Shown here piece after piece: positions 14,905-34,577 of a stretch of DNA of 64,000 nucleotides. The notes under the pieces are model-generated. The model saw only the letters and a list, made by a program, of their open reading frames with translations. It did not search any database and was not told where the DNA came from. Numbering within the stretch: the first letter of the stretch is position 1; each line of letters begins with the position of its first letter. This DNA comes from Candidatus Woykebacteria bacterium (GTDB lineage: Bacteria; Patescibacteriota; Microgenomatia; Woykebacterales; RBG-16-39-9b), in assembly GCA_040876265.1 (NCBI GenBank), contig JBBDPN010000002.1, forward strand, positions 3,954 through 67,953, read 5' to 3'. The translations under genes were made by a program, and so were the position numbers.

Positions 14905-16122
14905 TTAAGGCAAGACTGAAAGAGGATTTACGTTGCGGTTACCACGTCTTACCTCCAAATGTAGGTGTGGTCCAGTACAAAAGCCAGTACAACCCACATT
15001 TCCTATTTGTTGCCCCTTTACAACTGCTTGTCCTGCCTTAGCTTTTATTGAAGATAAATGGGCGTAGAGAGTTGTGTAACCATTAGGGTGTGCAATCACC
15101 AAATCATTGCCAAAACCCAAATTACTCCACCCCGCCTCCACTACTGTTCCAGCCATAGCCGCACTCACCACAGCTCCATAAGGAGCACCAATATCAATTG
15201 CCGGGTGCCACCAAGAAGGTGCTTGGTTAAGTGTACCTTTTACAGGCCAGGCGAAAAGACCACTACCACCAGCGTAGTAAATTGGGTAATTCCTTGGTCC
15301 GCTCGGTGCTGTAGGAAGAGGTGTGGGTGGAGGCATCTTGCCTCCAGGTACTATCAAAGACTCGCCAACTCGCAGCTTCAAGGTGTCGTCAATATAATTA
15401 AATGGGTAGTTGGCAATAGTCTGCGCGTTAGCCTTGTACTTTTTTGCGACCGAGTAAATAGTATCGCTCTTTTTTACTTTGTGTATTACACCAGTAACCG
15501 GAGGGACCGCCAAGGTATCCCCTGGCTTTACGGTGTCAACATCGTCCAAATTGTTTGCCCATTTTATAGAATCAACACTAATACTGTAGGCAGAGGCTAC
15601 TTTTGATAAGGTGTCGCCTTTTTCTACCTTATATTTTACTATTTCGGATCGTGGCCGATCGCTTGGGATGAGAGTCACCGGGGTATTTTCTGCGGAAAGT
15701 ACCTGATCTCGTGAAAAATCTTCCGCCGCTACACCGGCTCTAAACAAACTTCCAACCACCAAAGCCACCGAAGCCAAAACTAGTAACCCAACGTGCGTAC
15801 TAGGACGAAAAAGAAGACCTCGCCTCCACATCAACACACTCACAAGAGCATCTTTTATCTGCTCCAGAAAATAAACAAAGGCGACGGCTCGCCTCTGGGT
15901 AAACATAATGTAGTGTAGGGAAAAAGTAAGATAATCCCAGGAAATTTTTAGGCTTGAGACTGAAACAAGCTTCAGCAGCGTCCAAATGAATTTGGCTACC
16001 CCAAGTGGCCACGAAAACCAATTAGGACGCGTGTAAAAATTATCCTGAACAAAATCTAATTCGTATGGATAAGTTGTAGTTGGGTAAGATAAACTACCTT
16101 CCGGATCTTGTTGATTTGTCAT
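14905..16122 (-). CDS. Membrane-anchored peptidoglycan hydrolase: 2 LysM domains + M23 metallopeptidase
   Basis: Two LysM repeats (GDTLSKVASAYSISVDSIKWAN; SDTIYSVAKKYKANAQTIANY). C-terminal M23 signature HPAIDIGAP...GYTTLYAHLS...GPHLHLEV. Confidence 0.85.
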   Translation of the reverse strand: MTNQQDPEGSLSYPTTTYPYELDFVQDNFYTRPNWFSWPLGVAKFIWTLLKLVSVSSLKISWDYLTFSLHYIMFTQRRAVAFVYFLEQIKDALVSVLMWRRGLLFRPSTHVGLLVLASVALVVGSLFRAGVAAEDFSRDQVLSAENTPVTLIPSDRPRSEIVKYKVEKGDTLSKVASAYSISVDSIKWANNLDDVDTVKPGDTLAVPPVTGVIHKVKKSDTIYSVAKKYKANAQTIANYPFNYIDDTLKLRVGESLIVPGGKMPPPTPLPTAPSGPRNYPIYYAGGSGLFAWPVKGTLNQAPSWWHPAIDIGAPYGAVVSAAMAGTVVEAGWSNLGFGNDLVIAHPNGYTTLYAHLSSIKAKAGQAVVKGQQIGNVGCTGFCTGPHLHLEVRRGNRNVNPLSVLP

Positions 16123-19199: not shown

Positions 19200-21239
19200 C
19201 TAAGCCGGGCCGCCGTAGCCGTCATCAGGGTCGGTGTCCGGAGGAGCCTGCGGTATCGGTGTCTCCGTCGGCAGGGGGTCCGTACCCGGGATGTCCTCAC
19301 CAGGCGGTACTGACCCTTCGGCGAAGTCCAGCACCTCGTCGTAGCAGATGGTTTCCGATCCGTCCAGTATGTACACCCCCAGATCGTTCTCTTCGTTGAG
19401 AGGTATCATGAACTGGACGGCCTCACCACTACCGATGAAGTCGCCGTTTAGCCACCATTCGATCTGGTGATCGAAGTTGGGTAGCCGGTCCCACTGGATA
19501 GACGCCTGCATCCGGGCGTGGGTCTGCGTGTTGTCGACCCGATGCGGACCGAGGATCGTCACTTCGCACTTTTTCGGCGTCGGTGTTGGAGACGGTTTTG
19601 GTGTCGCCGTTGGGCTGGGCTTGGGAGTCGGCGTCGGCTCTGGACCAGGCGGCTTCACCGTCCGGTTCTTCCAGACCCCGGCGTCCTTGAACTTCTCGCC
19701 ACGTTTGATGGTGAGAGTCTTCTCGCCGCTGGCCGGGTCGATCGGCTGCCACTTATCGCTAGGGGCTATCTCCCGGATCTTCACCGTCACCTGCTCGGCG
19801 TCGGTGTTGGGACCCGTAAAGATGTCCACGTCCTCGAACCGGAATTCGCCGGTTTCAGGATCGGTCTTGACCTTCAGGGTAGGCAGCCCGGGCACGGAAA
19901 GCTCGAAGGTGAAGACCTCGTTGGGAACGCGGTGCTTCTCACCGTGGACCCAGACCTTCTTGCCGACGATAGTTACCGGCGGCGGAGGCGGCGTCACCTT
20001 CCGGTTACCAAACTCCACGGGGGCTACGTCGCCGTCCTTCACCTCCACGGTCTGGGTGGTCGCCGTTGTCGCCTCCCAACCGTCGGGGATGTTGATCTCC
20101 TTCACCGTGTAGGTGCCCGGCGGCAGCGCGTCCGACACGAACAGGCCGTTGACGTCAGTGGTTACGGTCTTATCGAAGTCGGGGCCCTTGATGTGGAAGG
20201 TGAAGGTGACGTCTGCGGAAGGCGGGCCTTCACCCTTCTCCGGCTTACCGTCGCCGTCCTTGTCCTCCCATTTGATGATCTTGAGCCGGCCTTCCTTGGG
20301 GGTGGGGATGGTCAGGTTCACGCAATCGTCAAGCAGCGTGAACTTGTTGTCCTTACCCTTGACGCTGATCACCTTGGCGTCTGTTGGCGAGCCTGAGTAG
20401 TCGACGGTTCGGGCCTCGACGCTGTTGCAATCGTCGGAGCGCAGCAGCACGTTGGTCTTGACGATCTCTGTGAAGTGAGGGATCTCCTCGATGTTGGTGA
20501 TGTCCGAGGCCTGCACATCGATGCCCTGGCAGCGCAGCCCGGAGGCCGCTTGCTCTTTGAGAGCATCGGTTTCCGAGGCGCTGGGTGCCGACGCGGTTGC
20601 CCCGGCAAACCCCTCATCGATCACGTAGGAGGCTTCACTCGCCGGTAAGGGTGCTGGCTGATCAAGCGTAGCCGGGTAGATGTCTACCTGCTGCCGACCT
20701 TCCGCTAGGAGGTTTGGTGTGTCCTGATCCCAGTACCCAAACGCGAAGGTCTGGAGCTCCACCACCTCGGCGTCAGCCACCTCGATTCGGTAGTAACCGG
20801 AGTCGTCGGTGGTCAGCACTTCGAGCTGACTGGAGCCGATTGGCGCGTCGCTACTCCTGGCCCGAACCGCCTGCAGCGCTGAGAGGTCTGTGACCGCCGC
20901 AACGCTGGGCTGGAAGTCCGGGTGGCGGTATCGAAGCACCTGCACGTGGGCGTTCGGTAACGCCTCGCCTGAGTGGCGATCACGCACGTAGCCCTCGAGT
21001 GAGGTAGTGCCGTCCGCAGATGGCCCCAGGTCAGTGACCTGGTAACCTGGCTCCTGGGAGTACTCCTGACTCACCATGGTGCCGTTGCGGAGATGGTCTC
21101 CACCTCCGGACAAGAGGACGAACGCGAGCATCACCGCCGCCCCTACGGCTACTCCTGCCGGGGCGACCGAGTACACGCGCCTCTTCTGGAAAACGATCAC
21201 AGCGAGGAACGCTGCGATCACCAATATGAAAACCCACAT
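19200..21239 (-). CDS. N-terminally TM-anchored protein with Cna-B/prealbumin-like repeats and a Pro/Thr-rich PTPKPSPT linker; GC-rich (about 60%) single-gene island
   Basis: PGTYTVKEINIPDGWE matches the Cna B GxYxLxE..P.GY motif. Low-complexity PEPTPTPKPSPTATPKPSPTPTP linker. GC content rises sharply exactly at the ORF borders. Confidence 0.5.
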   Translation of the reverse strand: MWVFILVIAAFLAVIVFQKRRVYSVAPAGVAVGAAVMLAFVLLSGGGDHLRNGTMVSQEYSQEPGYQVTDLGPSADGTTSLEGYVRDRHSGEALPNAHVQVLRYRHPDFQPSVAAVTDLSALQAVRARSSDAPIGSSQLEVLTTDDSGYYRIEVADAEVVELQTFAFGYWDQDTPNLLAEGRQQVDIYPATLDQPAPLPASEASYVIDEGFAGATASAPSASETDALKEQAASGLRCQGIDVQASDITNIEEIPHFTEIVKTNVLLRSDDCNSVEARTVDYSGSPTDAKVISVKGKDNKFTLLDDCVNLTIPTPKEGRLKIIKWEDKDGDGKPEKGEGPPSADVTFTFHIKGPDFDKTVTTDVNGLFVSDALPPGTYTVKEINIPDGWEATTATTQTVEVKDGDVAPVEFGNRKVTPPPPPVTIVGKKVWVHGEKHRVPNEVFTFELSVPGLPTLKVKTDPETGEFRFEDVDIFTGPNTDAEQVTVKIREIAPSDKWQPIDPASGEKTLTIKRGEKFKDAGVWKNRTVKPPGPEPTPTPKPSPTATPKPSPTPTPKKCEVTILGPHRVDNTQTHARMQASIQWDRLPNFDHQIEWWLNGDFIGSGEAVQFMIPLNEENDLGVYILDGSETICYDEVLDFAEGSVPPGEDIPGTDPLPTETPIPQAPPDTDPDDGYGGPA

Positions 21240-22381
21240 GTGCGGGTCCTCCTTTCTTGAACTATCGACTGCCGATTTTGATTGCCTTAGGATTTATTAA
21301 GGTGCGAAGCAAAAATGAACCTACCTCGGGCTTACGCCCATGGTACCCTCTTTTGCTTACAAAATAAAAACTGCCTGGCAGACAGCCTTTATCTCTACTT
21401 ATTAAAGTTAGCGAATTGTACAATCAATTTGTGGAAATGTCAACTATAGGGTTCTCATACCTTATGCCTTGCTCCGCAAGCCAGGTATTGCGAACCCTGC
21501 GTTCAAGCATAGTCTAACGGCTATTTGCTTGAACTAAGGTTGGTTTATACTATCGGGAATTTTAATGACTCCAGGATGTTTTTTTGTGGTAAAAAAAGAG
21601 AGTTGAGTATAAAAAAAAATAAAAACCGTGAACCTTATTCCTCAGCGCCCAGTATGAGTGTTACCCCAAACCAGACGCCGGGGAACAATTTCCACGGCCC
21701 CGCCAGCTGGCGGATTGAACCTAGTTGAACAACTTATTTATTCAAAAATGGCTTATTTTTGTAAATATCGTTGCTATACTTTGTTATAGTGCTACCCTTA
21801 CAAAATCTTCTTGATCGACTTCAGGGTTGACTTTTCTCTCGCTTAACTGTTTAATAGAAATTAATCAGTACACCTGCTGTCCAGATGTACTTTCAGAAAC
21901 ACTGCCATCGGTGTCAAAGTCCTTCCGACCATGGCGGTGTTTCGTTTTATAAGCCTTTCAGATAATTCCTCCCCTACTCCGCATGACGCTTCGCAGGGGG
22001 TCGTCACAGTCCCCTGCCCAAAGACTGTGACCAAGGACCTACCATTACCCCTTTTGGGGGAACAAGGCAGAAGGCCTTGCTTTATCAAGTACCAGTTTCT
22101 CACAAATTCTTTTTTTTGTCAAGTTTTTTAGTCCCATAGAAAATTTACCCACGAAAAACGTGGGTCCTATAGTGGATTTAGGTTCAGAAATGGCCGCTTG
22201 AAGGCTTGCGGGAAATAAATCTCCCCCGGGTTTACTCCCGTGGTATCTTCTTTTGCTCGCAAAATAAATTTCTCGCGACGGGAAAACACACCTTTCGTGA
22301 ATTATTTATCAGTTAAGAAGGTGGCTTAGGTACTGGAGGTTTAGTTGGTTTGTTTGGGCAGCACGAATATATGCCTAATCA

Positions 22382-23320
22382 CTACGCTTCTTGTCTTTCC
22401 TCAGCTTGACCAAACTGAGTAAATATCATCCGACCGGCGGACGTTTGCAGCACTCGAAGGACTTTTGTAGAAACGCTCTTGCCTAGGTACGCTGCGCCAT
22501 TTTCAACCACAATCATTGTGCCATCGGGTAAATACCCCACGCCCTGGGACTTCTCTTTCCCAACCTGAATTACCTTTACGTCTAGTGGTTCCCCGGGAAG
22601 CAAGGTAGTTTTCAGAGCGTTGACCAATTCGTTGATGTTAAGGATCTTGATGCCAGAAACCGTAGCTACTTTATTTAGATTAAAATCTGTGGTCATCACC
22701 TTCGCCTTCATAGATTTGGCCAGGTTCAACAGCTTTTCATCAATGTTTTTTCCTTTTACATCATCGTTATCATAAATTTGAGTTTTTACCTGCTTAGATT
22801 TTTTTAGATTTTCCAATATATCCAGACCCCTACGTCCTTTTCCTCTCCTCAAAGCATTGGAGGCATCGGCAATATGTTGAAGCTCAGAAAGGATAAATCT
22901 AGGCACGACCAGCGTACCGTGGAGGAAACCACTCTCAGCCATGTCAGCTACCCTACCGTCAATGAGGGCGCTGGTGTCAACTAAAATAGGATTTAGATAA
23001 CCATTTTCTCCTCTTTTCTTCGGTTGCCTCCTGCTAATCCGATTGCGCAGATCTCGCATTCCGTCAAGGTTTGGTAAGTGCAGCTGTGATATGATCTCGT
23101 TGGCCACCCTTTTGGCAAAAATACTACTCCAATAACCGATCCACCGACTAACAATCGGTACAATAAAAATACCTGCCGCGCCAGCTGCCAGAGCAAGTAT
23201 TAGATTTACACTCATCGCAGTTTGACTATTTTCTATTGTTAGAAGATTATTGGTCAAAAAGAAGCCTATTCCTCCAAAGGCAATACCAAGGACAATACGT
23301 GAAATAAATTGAATATTCAT
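22382..23320 (-). CDS. YacL-like membrane protein with PIN and TRAM domains
   Basis: Two N-terminal TM helices, PIN motif ILVDTSALIDGR and a C-terminal TRAM-like beta domain. Lies directly downstream of radA, as in Bacillus radA-yacL. Confidence 0.65.
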   Translation of the reverse strand: MNIQFISRIVLGIAFGGIGFFLTNNLLTIENSQTAMSVNLILALAAGAAGIFIVPIVSRWIGYWSSIFAKRVANEIISQLHLPNLDGMRDLRNRISRRQPKKRGENGYLNPILVDTSALIDGRVADMAESGFLHGTLVVPRFILSELQHIADASNALRRGKGRRGLDILENLKKSKQVKTQIYDNDDVKGKNIDEKLLNLAKSMKAKVMTTDFNLNKVATVSGIKILNINELVNALKTTLLPGEPLDVKVIQVGKEKSQGVGYLPDGTMIVVENGAAYLGKSVSTKVLRVLQTSAGRMIFTQFGQAEERQEA

Positions 23321-29532: not shown

Positions 29533-29777
29533 TTGAGTTAGTCGTCAGTTGTAAGTTGTAAGCAACTTAACAACTAACCCAAAACCGTTTTTCTTACAAC
29601 TTAGAAATTAAATCTTATAACTAAGTCCTGCACCCTGAAAACTGGATAGAAGTATTTTGGATCTGATGTGATCTTAGAGAACGGAGCACTATTGAAACAA
29701 AGATTTCAATAGTAGCGTAGTTCTCGCAGATCGCAACTGATCCTAAGGATCTTTTACGATCTGTTAGTACGGCTTAG

Positions 29778-32660
<2,883 letters not shown>

Positions 32661-32933: not shown

Positions 32934-33241
32934 GCGCAAGCACAAGGCGCTATTCTAGCAATATTAAATTTTGGTGTCTAGAGGGAACTTTAGGTTGGAG
33001 GTGAATTACCTACGCTTCTACGAAGTGAGTAAGAAACAAATATAAGTTTTGCGTAAATCACTTGCCTAAAATCCCTCCTGTGAATGATCCTTCGACGCTG
33101 CTCAGGATCACCCCGAGCTTGCCGAAGGGTGAGAATAATTCACTCATCAACCGCAATATAGCACCAATTTGGGCTTCCGTCAAGGTAGAGACAGACCAGT
33201 TAGCACTCTTGAAAAGTGCTTTGCTAATTTTTAGCCCACGC

Positions 33242-33300
33242 TAGTGGTCGCAGCACGCAAGAGTATCTAAATAATGAGTTTCTAACGAAATTATTTAGTT
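33242..33300 (-). promoter_or_regulatory. Hairpin (CTAAATAAT..ATTATTTAG) followed by box TAYTCTTGCG..GCGACCACTA, spacer copy; boxB/boxA-like antitermination candidate
   Basis: The same two-part element recurs at 37357-37435 upstream of 16S. It lies upstream of tRNA-Ala/23S in the sense orientation. Confidence 0.4.
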
Positions 33301-33380
33301 ACGGAGCGGGTTTAGCAACAGCGCAGCACGCGGAGTAGCTGGCTTTGAGCGCTAGCGAAACGGCATAAGCTACGAGCGGG

Positions 33381-33734
33381 CTATCTGTGGCTTTCGTTGA
33401 GGATCTTCCAGTTCCAGTTTCTTTTTTTGTTGGAGCCGATTTTCTTGATGATGGCTTTTTCGAGGTCAATTTTCAATGATCCAGAAAGATGTAGTAATCG
33501 TTGGAGTACGTCGCCAAGCTCTTCTTCAAAACCACCTTTGCCTTTAATTTTTTTGTGGCGATAAGCCTCATAAGCTTCGGAGATTTCGCTGTGAAGCAAG
33601 GCTATCTTTTCCGGCACGCTTATATCTTTCCGACTTGTGCCAAAACCTTTTTCCCGGGCTTGTTCCATAACGAGTTCCGTTAATTGTTTCAGGGTAAGAT
33701 TTTTCACGAAGGTATTATATACCCGTAAATCCAA
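33381..33734 (-). CDS. MazG-like nucleoside triphosphate pyrophosphohydrolase domain protein, encoded inside the rRNA spacer
   Basis: KIALLHSEISEAYEAYR ... EELGDVLQRLLHL matches the MazG/NTP-PPase helix pair with the EExxE/ExxD metal ligands. Same strand as the rRNAs. Confidence 0.55.
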   Translation of the reverse strand: MDLRVYNTFVKNLTLKQLTELVMEQAREKGFGTSRKDISVPEKIALLHSEISEAYEAYRHKKIKGKGGFEEELGDVLQRLLHLSGSLKIDLEKAIIKKIGSNKKRNWNWKILNESHR

Positions 33735-34009
33735 TCGCGAACTTGGTCTGGATCATAAAAACTTCCATTAAGAATAAAATAATGTGTCTTGGGAAATTCA
33801 AGAATAGTGTCATTAATTAATTCAAGCTCGTTTTCTATCGAACCAAAAAAAGATTCGCAGGGTCTTACCCTGTGAGTAAAATGATACCGCCCAAGAGAGT
33901 GTATTTTGATAGTCATATGATTCTCCATGTGAGAAATTTTGGTACCCATAACTATATTATACAAATCTTATCTGACCCATTGAGTTCATCAAAAAAAAAG
34001 GGGGGGGGA

Positions 34010-34384
34010 TTAAAACAAGGTTTCGGGTTTGACCCTGTGTTTAATCAAGCATTCATTGTAAAAAGCGTTTATTTCATCTGGTGTTTTCAACCCACCTTTT
34101 AACTGGATGTAGCTATAATAATCTGTAATGCCACCAACGTTAGGTATCAATTCCGGCTCGTAAATAGCTGCATTCAAGGGTCTGTTGTCAGCAATTTTCG
34201 CTTTTTTTCTAAATTCGCTTATACAGATTTGCCTTACCTCCACTGGTCTCCATTCAAACCAATAGAAACTACCAATCAAAAATAATGTTATTGAGGCTAA
34301 AGATACTGATAAAAAGATGGTCTTAGATTTGTTCATAAATATTTTTGAAAATATGGTGGGCGCGGATGGGATAAACCGCTCCAT
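34010..34384 (-). CDS. Small membrane-anchored hypothetical protein inside the rRNA spacer
   Basis: 124-aa ORF with one N-terminal TM helix (TIFLSVSLASITLFLIGSFYWF). On the same strand as the rRNAs. No recognisable family. Confidence 0.3.
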   Translation of the reverse strand: MERFIPSAPTIFSKIFMNKSKTIFLSVSLASITLFLIGSFYWFEWRPVEVRQICISEFRKKAKIADNRPLNAAIYEPELIPNVGGITDYYSYIQLKGGLKTPDEINAFYNECLIKHRVKPETLF

Positions 34385-34501
34385 AATTCGAAACTTTCAG
34401 TTTCTTAAGTATTCCCGCGTTTTGCGACCACGCTAAGCGTGGGCTACGAACCTGGGACCCCTACATTAGACGCAACTAAAGCTGCTATCTTTTGCGATTC
34501 A

Positions 34502-34577
34502 TGGTGCGCGCGCATGGATTCGAACCATGGACCCCTACATTATCAGTGTAGTGCTCTAACCACTGAGCTACGCGCGC
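34502..34577 (-). tRNA. tRNA-Ile (anticodon GAU) in the 16S-23S spacer
   Basis: Reverse complement GCGCGCGTAGCTCAGTGGTTAGAGCACTACACTGATAATGTAGGGGTCCATGGTTCGAATCCATGCGCGCGCACCA. Anticodon loop is CUGAUAA. Confidence 0.85.

Follow-up and report, generated by a model that had tools for sequence, protein, structure and literature searches.

What does a gene-free interval of more than 1 kb do in the genome of a bacterium of the candidate phyla radiation (CPR; Patescibacteria)? The window that we analysed, a 64-kb stretch of Candidatus Woykebacteria DNA, contains such an interval at positions 21240-22381, between two minus-strand genes: yacL, which encodes a 312-aa protein with PIN and TRAM domains and has its stop codon at 22382, and a gene for a 679-aa surface protein with SpaA, SdrD_B and CarboxypepD_reg domains, whose ATG lies at 21239. 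We conclude that the interval is very probably a conserved gene for a structured noncoding RNA (ncRNA) of Candidatus Woykebacteria and is neither junk DNA nor a dead gene. The predicted transcript, about 470 nt long and without a conserved reading frame, matches no described family and is apparently undescribed. The original prediction, made from this sequence, had noted the length of the noncoding stretch and two direct repeats within it. Its suggestion that the stretch might be an ncRNA gene is borne out by relatives, which show strong conservation of sequence and structure and no protein gene.

A conserved locus for a probable structured RNA 3′ of yacL

To find syntenic relatives, we looked up YacL homologues by exact protein match and made one pattern scan of metagenomes; related loci fetched for comparison carry L-numbers below. 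The YacL protein of the window has an identical counterpart (100%) in a Candidatus Woykebacteria metagenome-assembled genome, and its next-closest relatives (52-72% identity) belong to Woykebacteria or Patescibacteria. Each of the eight relatives with annotated genes that we fetched (YacL identity 52-71%) likewise has a gene-free gap of about 1 kb after yacL, measuring 0.9-1.3 kb per locus and, in L082, more than 2.1 kb up to the contig end. No gene is called in the gaps of L082, L084, L086, L087, L089, L091 and L093, and the short open reading frames (ORFs) called in other assemblies of two loci (L083/L085 and L090; 61-95 aa) have no Pfam match. The comparison with syntenic relatives that had been proposed as a check therefore shows a retained gap and no pseudogenised protein gene. 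By BLASTN, window positions 22185 to 21621 on the minus strand are 72-80% identical to all these relatives, and a 46-nt core (CCCCGGCGTCTGGTTTGGGGTAACACTCATACTGGGCGCTGAGG) is 95-100% identical even where YacL identity is only 52-56%. A metagenome scan with 22 nt of this core yielded 30 further loci, and a scan of genome contigs with the YacL alignment gave one more among the matches listed.

The conserved sequence comprises a promoter, two RNA domains (RNA1 and RNA2) and the linker between them:

22094-22122, minus strand: sigma-70-type ncRNA promoter, -35 TTGACA at 22122-22117 and -10 GAAACT at 22099-22094
21865-22088, minus strand: RNA1 domain, the multi-hairpin 5′ part, supported by fold, alignment and covariance model R2
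start of RNA1, minus strand: two variable 5′ hairpins, then the block GGUAGG(U/C)CC, GGUAGGUCC (22043-22035)
22032-22003, minus strand: RNA1 helix Ha, loop ..GGGCAGGGG, conserved GGGCAGGG
22000-21971, minus strand: RNA1 variable hairpin CCCC...GGGG, then AGGAAUUAU
within RNA1, minus strand: helix Hb, with a GNRA-type loop region (GGAA, GUGA or GUAA)
within RNA1, minus strand: near-invariant hairpin Hc, GUACAUCUGGACAGCAGGUGUAC
21702-21864, minus strand: linker, with two conserved single-strand motifs and clade-specific sequence, from alignments
about 21835-21820, minus strand: linker motif 1, AAAAGUCAACCCUGAA (AAAGUCAAGUCUGAA)
21792-21780, minus strand: linker motif 2, GCACUAUAACAAA
21703-21716: linker hairpin CCGCCAGCUGGCGG of the window clade, noted earlier as CCGCCAGCTGGCGG
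21611-21701, minus strand: RNA2 domain, a long hairpin with a freely covarying closing stem and a U-run at 21625-21611

The RNA1 stretch of the window folds with z = -4.6. In an alignment of 24 full-length sequences, RNAalifold recovered the RNA2 hairpin as well as Ha, Hb and Hc, and both partners had changed in 13 pairs. Taken together, Ha, Hb and Hc have 97.6% of alignment cells paired, against at most 44% in slid controls, and show 8 double-change pairs against 2.5 in shuffles (0 of 500 as high). The apical part of the CCCC...GGGG hairpin varies freely in length and sequence with complementarity kept, as judged by eye. For RNA2, we aligned 33 distinct sequences without gaps, anchored on the core. 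Its closing stem occurs in at least eight unrelated sequence versions, all in register; 93.6% of cells are paired compared with 79.3% in shuffles (none of 500 as high), 163 cells show double changes compared with 59 in shuffles, and slid controls reach at most 45% paired. The slid controls keep the relatedness of the sequences; the shuffle control leaves it in the statistics. Compensatory changes exceed both kinds of control, as expected of a conserved secondary structure.

The core of RNA2 pairs CCCCGGCGUCUGG with CUGGGCGCUGAGG and includes five near-invariant G.U pairs (in 31-33 of the 33 sequences), below a conserved 16-nt apical loop (UUGGGGUAACACUCAU) that is invariant in 20 of the 33. 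These G.U pairs, together with covariance-model scores in the two orientations, identify the minus strand as the RNA strand. Model R1 scores 87.7 bits at 21622-21701 of the minus strand and 23.9 bits antisense; model R2 scores 111.9 bits at 21863-21952 of the minus strand and has no antisense match in the window at E ≤ 1. Each model gave one match per Woykebacteria locus and none in 29 yacL loci of other lineages, a negative set taken from the YacL-alignment scan, whose listed matches were almost only distant Bacillota and Nitrospira. In essentially all of the 30 metagenome loci of sufficient extent, RNA1 and RNA2 are found linked. Among the available loci, the two modules always occur together, always 3′ of yacL and only in this lineage.

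The promoter that precedes RNA1 has a 17-nt spacer ending in TGA (an extended -10; pattern TTGACA-N14-TGN-NANNNT). In all, 28 loci retain its hexamers and their 17-nt spacing but differ in spacer sequence, and fixed spacer length with variable spacer sequence is the pattern of a functional promoter; 6 of the 7 loci without it end less than 350 nt upstream. The RNA would start at about 22088-22085. At the other end, the RNA2 hairpin and its U-run are a predicted intrinsic terminator, and the covarying closing stem and U-run are present in most of the 33 RNA2 sequences. At the level of sequence, the unit is thus bounded by a conserved sigma-70 promoter and a putative intrinsic terminator. This promoter would drive one primary transcript from about 22088 to about 21615, ending at the RNA2 hairpin, and partial termination or processing may occur after Hc, where there is a weak U-tract.

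In the distant clade (L002, L089, L091, L093, L101 and L104), the predicted 5′ end UAGAGUGUUAA could pair with the RNA2 loop UAACACUC(U) over 8-9 nt; the complementary stretch is the first 8-9 nt of the RNA, AGAGUGUUA. The window clade lacks such a 5′ sequence, and an A/U polymorphism in the loop is uncompensated.

RNA2 is present as a single minimal unit in the window, and it is multiplied in some relatives. Motif matching found the core motif two or three times in 13 of 39 loci, which thus have one or two RNA2-like units beyond RNA2 itself; by eye, L105 and L112 may have a fourth. Unit counts depend on motif matching because large insertions hide the expanded units from model R1. The extra units share three core strands (GGCGUCUGG, UUUGGGGUAACACUC and UAUACUGGRCGCUGAGG) and carry added helices at two fixed sites, which gives a multi-branch fold. 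Regions of expanded units or repeat hairpins lie at 9320-9640 in L082, 9660-9900 in L084, 540-900 in L105 and 7440-7800 in L112, and also in L113, L110 and L122. In addition, L082, L084 and L122 contain a second repeated hairpin, AAUGAGCACGCGAnAGUAC...GUAUACGnAGCGUGCUAUUUUU, whose internal loop is of the AGUA/GGA type. The window has neither expanded units nor this second hairpin.

Several points weigh against reading the gap as an RNA gene of this kind. The shuffle-based statistics are inflated by the relatedness of the aligned sequences, which form two main clades, and many of the most conserved positions are invariant and hence uninformative on structure. An all-against-all covariation scan of a 925-column alignment was dominated by the two-clade signal and gave no credible long-range pairs beyond the local helices. 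Transcription, the ends of the RNA and the choice between one molecule and two are read from promoter and terminator patterns. The apparent restriction to the lineage comes from the 29 yacL loci outside Woykebacteria and one exact-pattern metagenome scan. As to function, we searched the window (rRNA, tRNA and other sequence) for sites that the RNA2 loop might pair with or mimic and found nothing beyond chance; no partner protein or ligand emerged either, and the role that we favour, that of a trans-acting, protein-binding RNA, is our best guess.

Coding, housekeeping and leader alternatives

The longest ORF within 21240-22381 encodes 80 aa. It has no Pfam match and no counterpart of at least 50 aa on the RNA strand in L082, the sole locus checked, in line with the earlier description of the region as free of ORFs. 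We also considered a small ORF or transfer-messenger RNA (tmRNA) tag in the linker, in the frame ending GCA CUA UAA, and rejected it, as this frame is broken in 12 of 29 sequences scored.

Rfam 15 (4227 covariance models), searched as had been proposed for this region, gave no family match at the gathering score. With the cut-off relaxed to E ≤ 10, the window region, the gap of L091 and L105 returned only weak, unrelated and mutually inconsistent matches, and none of three divergent homologues matched the models for RNase P (RF00010, RF00011), the signal recognition particle (SRP; RF00169, RF01854) or 6S RNA (RF00013). ARAGORN found no tmRNA in the window region or in nine related loci. We found no description of such an RNA in the literature, and no structured ncRNA specific to CPR bacteria in Rfam 15 or the literature searched.

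Each of the common housekeeping RNAs has hallmarks, for which we used general motif consensuses in the cases of RNase P, SRP and tmRNA. RNase P RNA is marked by the P4 pseudoknot strands with CR-I (GAGGAAAGUCC) and CR-V (ACAGAA..CGGCUUA); SRP domain IV by a GNRA tetraloop with the symmetric-loop strands GGAA-GGAAGCAGC; tmRNA by a tRNA-like domain (acceptor stem, T-arm and CCA end) and a tag reading frame; and 6S RNA by one long, irregular hairpin (about 180 nt) whose centre forms a large bubble. Because RNase P RNAs of CPR bacteria can fall below the thresholds of Rfam (Lui et al. 2021, PMC8172020), we searched 24 sequences for the defining motifs directly. CR-V was found in 0 of 24 at up to 2 mismatches; CR-I in 0 of 24 at up to 1 mismatch, with four scattered, chance-like matches at 2 mismatches; the SRP motif GGAAGGAAGCAGC in 0 of 24 at up to 2 mismatches; and the tmRNA T-arm motif gave nothing but one chance-like match at 2 mismatches. 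Helix Hb has a GNRA-type loop (GGAA, GUGA or GUAA) but lacks the AGCA strand of SRP. Mapping RNase P by hand gave short resemblances in the wrong order, with no P4 and with the hallmark motifs missing. 6S RNA was rejected as well, since RNA1 has several hairpins, RNA2 is an 80-95-nt hairpin without a central bubble and RF00013 does not match. Hammerhead, twister and hairpin ribozymes, T-box, Y RNA, retron, TIGR array and type III antitoxin were set aside for want of supporting features or Rfam matches.

How do the alternatives to a new RNA gene fare against this evidence? A housekeeping RNA (RNase P, SRP, 6S or tmRNA) so diverged that it escapes the Rfam models would explain a length of about 470 nt, near-invariant blocks and a single copy per locus, all of them housekeeping-like, and by eye GGUAGG(C) (as in loop L15), GGGCAGGG, GGGGAGGAA and AAACACCGCC resemble general consensus sequences. 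In 10 of 35 circular CPR genomes, RNase P RNA was undetected until a bit-score threshold of 5, and CPR RNase P RNAs have helices that are missing or extended, so such RNAs can escape detection (Lui, Nielsen and Arkin 2021, PMC8172020). Yet no match to RNase P, SRP, 6S RNA or tmRNA appears at E ≤ 10 in the three divergent homologues, ARAGORN is empty, the CR-I, CR-V, SRP and T-arm motifs are missing bar chance-like matches, no long-range P4-like pairing was found, and the resembling motifs are out of RNase P order. The 3′ module is moreover multiplied in tandem in relatives; to our knowledge, no housekeeping RNA has such a multiplication. We consider this explanation quite improbable. A pseudogenised protein gene or a small protein, such as one read from the linker in the frame that ends GCA CUA UAA, seems hardly tenable: about half of the loci do have an open frame of 16-28 codons that ends in Ala/Val-Leu-stop, with a few seemingly synonymous substitutions (judged partly by eye), but the frame is cut to 3-11 codons in 12 of the 29 sequences and mostly lacks a start codon, the spacing between conserved blocks differs among loci in all residues modulo 3, the blocks show compensatory pair changes, and the 80-aa ORF has neither Pfam match nor L082 counterpart.

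The blocks could instead belong to a long cis-regulatory leader or attenuator of the surface-protein operon. Their position upstream of that gene is fixed in the five loci reaching that far, RNA2 ends in a terminator-like hairpin, and the leader of the surface-protein gene likewise starts with a conserved hairpin and U-run. What makes this improbable is that a separate, conserved and strong promoter (CCTATAG-TTGACA-17-TACAAT) lies between RNA2 and the gene, that the distance from RNA2 to this promoter ranges from about 100 to more than 600 nt of unrelated or repeated filler, and that no alternative antiterminator pairing is evident. An independent structured RNA gene remains the reading that we prefer for the gap.

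The 56-nt repeat

The duplicated motif that first drew attention to the interval is real and longer than the 30 nt described. It is a 56-nt repeat with 80% identity between copies at 21313-21368 and 22213-22268, exactly 900 nt apart and in direct orientation. Of the two positions given for its core, the second was right (22238-22268), and the first was about 5 nt off (21338-21368). The hairpins and TTTTG-N4-CAAAA stem-loops named in the original prediction are all present in the sequence; the GC hairpins of the copies are GGGCTTACGCCC at 21328-21339 and CGGGTTTACTCCCG at 22227-22240. A degenerate 27-nt core, at up to 3 mismatches, occurs at only these two sites in 64 kb, compared with 0.00 expected from 100 shuffles, and the hairpin half of the repeat is likewise confined to them. 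The elements concerned are:

22271-22285, minus strand: small hairpin UUCCCGUCGCGAGAA with a T-rich run behind it, about 100 nt past the yacL stop, with repeat copy 2 inserted beside it
22213-22268, minus strand: repeat copy 2, a 41-nt core (22221-22261) flanked by the 8-nt direct repeat ATTTATTT (22213-22220 and 22262-22269)
21313-21368, minus strand: repeat copy 1, an insertion of about 55 nt in an otherwise conserved 5′ leader

The element is absent from all 39 related loci (at up to 9 substitutions in a 37-nt core, without indels) and is present only in L001, a contig of the same organism; all 39 repeat-free loci still carry the conserved RNA modules. Alignment with L084 and L082 places the extra ~55 nt of copy 1 exactly between the U-run and GCACC, in a leader that is otherwise conserved in both (promoter, hairpin and U-run, and GCACCTTAATAA). 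At copy 2, L121 reads ...CCCGTAACGAGAAAATAATTCCCGCAAGC where the window reads ...CCCGTCGCGAGAA-ATTTATTT-(41 nt)-ATTTATTT-CCCGCAAGC, and L084 and L121 both have the hairpin and the CCCGCAAG junction without an insertion. A hairpin and a T-rich run immediately precede both copies; copy 1 has no more than an approximate flanking repeat. Its sequence folds into a single long, imperfect palindrome in which GUAA caps a GC stem (-25 kcal/mol, z = -4.0). Relative to the RNA, copy 2 is about 125 nt upstream of the start, and copy 1 is about 250 nt beyond the terminator, past another promoter.

Two copies of a small palindromic insertion, similar to repetitive extragenic palindromes (REP) or miniature inverted-repeat transposable elements (MITEs), strain-specific and unrelated to the conserved RNA, are the reading that these junctions suggest. 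Like REP elements, their mosaic clusters (BIME) and hairpin MITEs, the repeat is an imperfect palindrome of about 50 nt, sits in intergenic DNA by terminator hairpins and T-runs, has a short flanking direct repeat and is present or absent among close relatives. It differs from them in having no clear terminal inverted repeats and no GTAG-type tetranucleotide, and in being seen in two copies. Only two copies are seen in 64 kb, too short a stretch to judge the many dispersed copies expected of such families; mobility is deduced from the junctions, and a local duplication could have produced the same arrangement. As context for REP-like elements, a gene for an IS200-like Y1 transposase (PF01797; 14151-14801) lies 6.5 kb away, and no further copy of the 56-nt element was found around this gene or elsewhere in the window. 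L087 has a counterpart of the transposase gene at 15006-15380, at the same end of the syntenic block, which suggests a domesticated copy, or one like the transposases associated with REP elements (RAYT), rather than an active insertion sequence.

The original prediction had offered two other roles for the repeats, as att-like scars bounding a decayed element or as the ends of an ncRNA gene, and these (boundaries of one decayed mobile element, or RNA ends or processing sites) fit direct repeats that flank a noncoding segment and lie 900 nt apart. We find both roles very hard to credit: the segment between the copies is a conserved, syntenic part of repeat-free relatives and contains no ORF remnants, and both copies fall outside the promoter-to-terminator span of the RNA and are absent in relatives that keep it. 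Each copy is a clean, independent insertion of about 50 nt in conserved sequence, with its own junction and, for copy 2, its own 8-nt flanking duplication, so they are neither att scars nor RNA ends. An unlikely explanation, which nevertheless has more in its favour, is that the repeat is a functional RNA element, such as a protein-binding or processing site, recruited to the yacL 3′ untranslated region (UTR) and the surface-protein 5′ UTR. Both copies have the same orientation and lie where minus-strand transcription is likely; despite 20% divergence, both keep the UUUUG/CAAAA stem and the GC stem with its GUAA cap; and a U-to-C change between the copies, read from the sequence, strengthens a pair of the GC stem. 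Against this, a C-G to A.A change in the same stem is not compensatory, two copies make covariation statistics impossible, and absence from every relative means that the repeat is not needed for the conserved functions of either transcript. We continue to favour a small strain-specific insertion.

Flanking elements, neighbouring genes and possible role

Other conserved elements flank the predicted RNA on both sides:

22123-22212, minus strand: conserved block upstream of the RNA promoter, with TTCCCGCAAGC, GAACCT and two direct CTATRGGA boxes, from alignments
21496-21539, minus strand: spacer hairpin GUUCAAGCA...GUUA...UGCUUGAAC, an inverted repeat between the RNA2 terminator and the next promoter
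21415-21443, minus strand: surface-protein promoter, TTGACA-17-TACAAT after CCTATAG, matching 11 of 12 consensus positions and kept in relatives
21361-21386, minus strand: leader hairpin GCUGUCUGCCAGGCAG and U-run at the start of the 5′ UTR, with repeat copy 1 inserted immediately after
21240-21312, minus strand: rest of the leader, GCACCUUAAUAA..CCUAAGGCAA, with the Shine-Dalgarno sequence AAAGGAGGA (21254-21246) before the ATG at 21239

In the upstream block, the CTATRGGA boxes flank the hairpin ACCCACGTTTTTCGTGGGT (22147-22165), whose stem had been listed as CCCACGAAAAACGTGGG at 22149-22165 and which looks like the yacL terminator in the window genome. Two CTATRG(GA) boxes, spaced by about 35 nt, precede the ncRNA promoter (ACTATAGGAC and TCTATGGGAC). 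A third box, at 21444-21450, abuts the -35 element of the surface-protein promoter (CCTATAG-TTGACA) and is kept in relatives. The box could be a shared transcription-factor site. By eye, L103 has a hairpin similar to the one at 21496-21539, and L084 and L113 show a weaker resemblance. The leader hairpin and U-run lie about 20-45 nt past the inferred start of the surface-protein transcript and have equivalents in L002, L084, L089, L095, L096, L098, L100, L108, L109 and L121; by eye, their stems differ in sequence among loci with complementarity kept. This arrangement suggests a conserved attenuator or a very short leader transcript.

The surface-protein gene itself (19200-21239) has a G+C content of 0.62 compared with 0.48 for its surroundings, and it had been taken as presumably acquired horizontally. 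Its counterparts in the corresponding position of L086 and L084 share 47-51% identity with it. Six orthologues (L084, L086, L087, L089, L091 and L093) have G+C contents of 0.56-0.59 against 0.44-0.47 for their loci, and in every genome examined the gene stands 10-14 percentage points above its surroundings. Because syntenic orthologues in six relatives are equally GC-rich, we attribute the composition to the gene family and not to recent transfer.

The window also holds an rRNA operon, downstream of which the minus-strand order is S1, clpC, radA, yacL, the gap and the surface-protein gene, continuing with a gene for a 390-aa protein, rho, a LysM/M23 peptidase gene and the Y1 transposase gene. 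The S1-clpC-radA-yacL side is present in loci L082-L093, and the downstream genes (for a 500-680-aa protein, a CLIPPER/SpaA protein, rho and LysM/M23) in the five loci long enough. The 16S-23S spacer of the window measures 2.3 kb and has two tRNA genes, with three ORFs of 86-124 aa between them (32934-34504), one of which (33381-33734) is a weak MazG match (22.8 bits against a cut-off of 22). Lui et al. (2021, PMC8172020) reported protein genes inside the rRNA spacers of CPR bacteria. L082 has a LAGLIDADG homing-endonuclease ORF (850-1353; RBG_16_43_9) beside or inside its 23S rRNA region; the 23S gene of the window (29743-32655) is uninterrupted.

What might the RNA do? It probably acts in trans as a stable folded RNA, and its invariant loops and G.U-rich helix would be recognised by a protein or another nucleic acid, making it a ribonucleoprotein scaffold or a titrating RNA. 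The tandem multiplication of RNA2 in relatives fits a role in dosage or titration. An invariant loop, a G.U helix, GNRA-type and GGA loops and helix insertion at fixed sites would be expected of a protein-recognised RNA or of a compact catalytic core. We hold this mechanistic part of the proposal tentatively, as doubtful in its particulars.

In general kind, the RNA resembles the OLE, ROOL, GOLLD and raiA motif RNAs: it is intergenic and several hundred nucleotides long, with multiple covariation-backed helices, near-invariant loops and junctions and variable helices at fixed sites, and it is lineage-restricted and was found by comparative genomics among uninformative neighbours. ROOL, GOLLD and HEARO are associated with phages or mobile elements. 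The Woykebacteria RNA differs from the OLE, ROOL, GOLLD and raiA RNAs, families that are in Rfam, in having no sequence or structure match to them, in its CPR host with a genome of about 0.9 Mb, in its two-domain architecture with a tandemly multiplied 3′ domain and in its strictly syntenic position. It shares with LhrC1-5 of Listeria, the Qrr small RNAs (sRNAs) and the CsrB/RsmZ sponges a conserved-loop hairpin and U-run that occur in head-to-tail copies in some genomes, as well as several conserved loops with GGA motifs (GGAAGGA, CUGGACAG and GGGGAGGAA). Unlike such sibling or titrating sRNAs, it has invariant stretches far longer than a seed or GGA motif needs, large inserted helices, no target complementarity that we could find and no promoter visible between units. 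With CPR RNase P RNAs (PMC8172020) it has in common the CPR host, housekeeping-like conservation, invisibility to Rfam at curated thresholds and variable peripheral helices; in contrast to them, it lacks the P4 strands, CR-I and CR-V, has no match at E ≤ 10 and is duplicated in its 3′ domain in relatives. We regard it as a new family of a known general kind, the lineage-restricted structured ncRNAs; its modular 3′ domain is unusual.

CPR genomes of about 1 Mb are tightly packed and leave little room for dispensable DNA. That 46-nt blocks stay 95-100% identical while YacL drifts to 52% points to very strong selection on the RNA. The eye-catching direct repeat is, on our reading, a strain-specific small insertion, and through it miniature insertion elements of a CPR genome come briefly into view. 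Only a small number of structured ncRNAs this large are known, and the earlier orphans OLE, ROOL, GOLLD and raiA each opened new biology once studied. Here the locus is well defined, with promoter, ends, helices and invariant loops mapped from sequence. We think it likely that the gap encodes an undescribed class of large structured ncRNA confined to Woykebacteria, which may form the core of a lineage-specific ribonucleoprotein or may even be a catalytic RNA.

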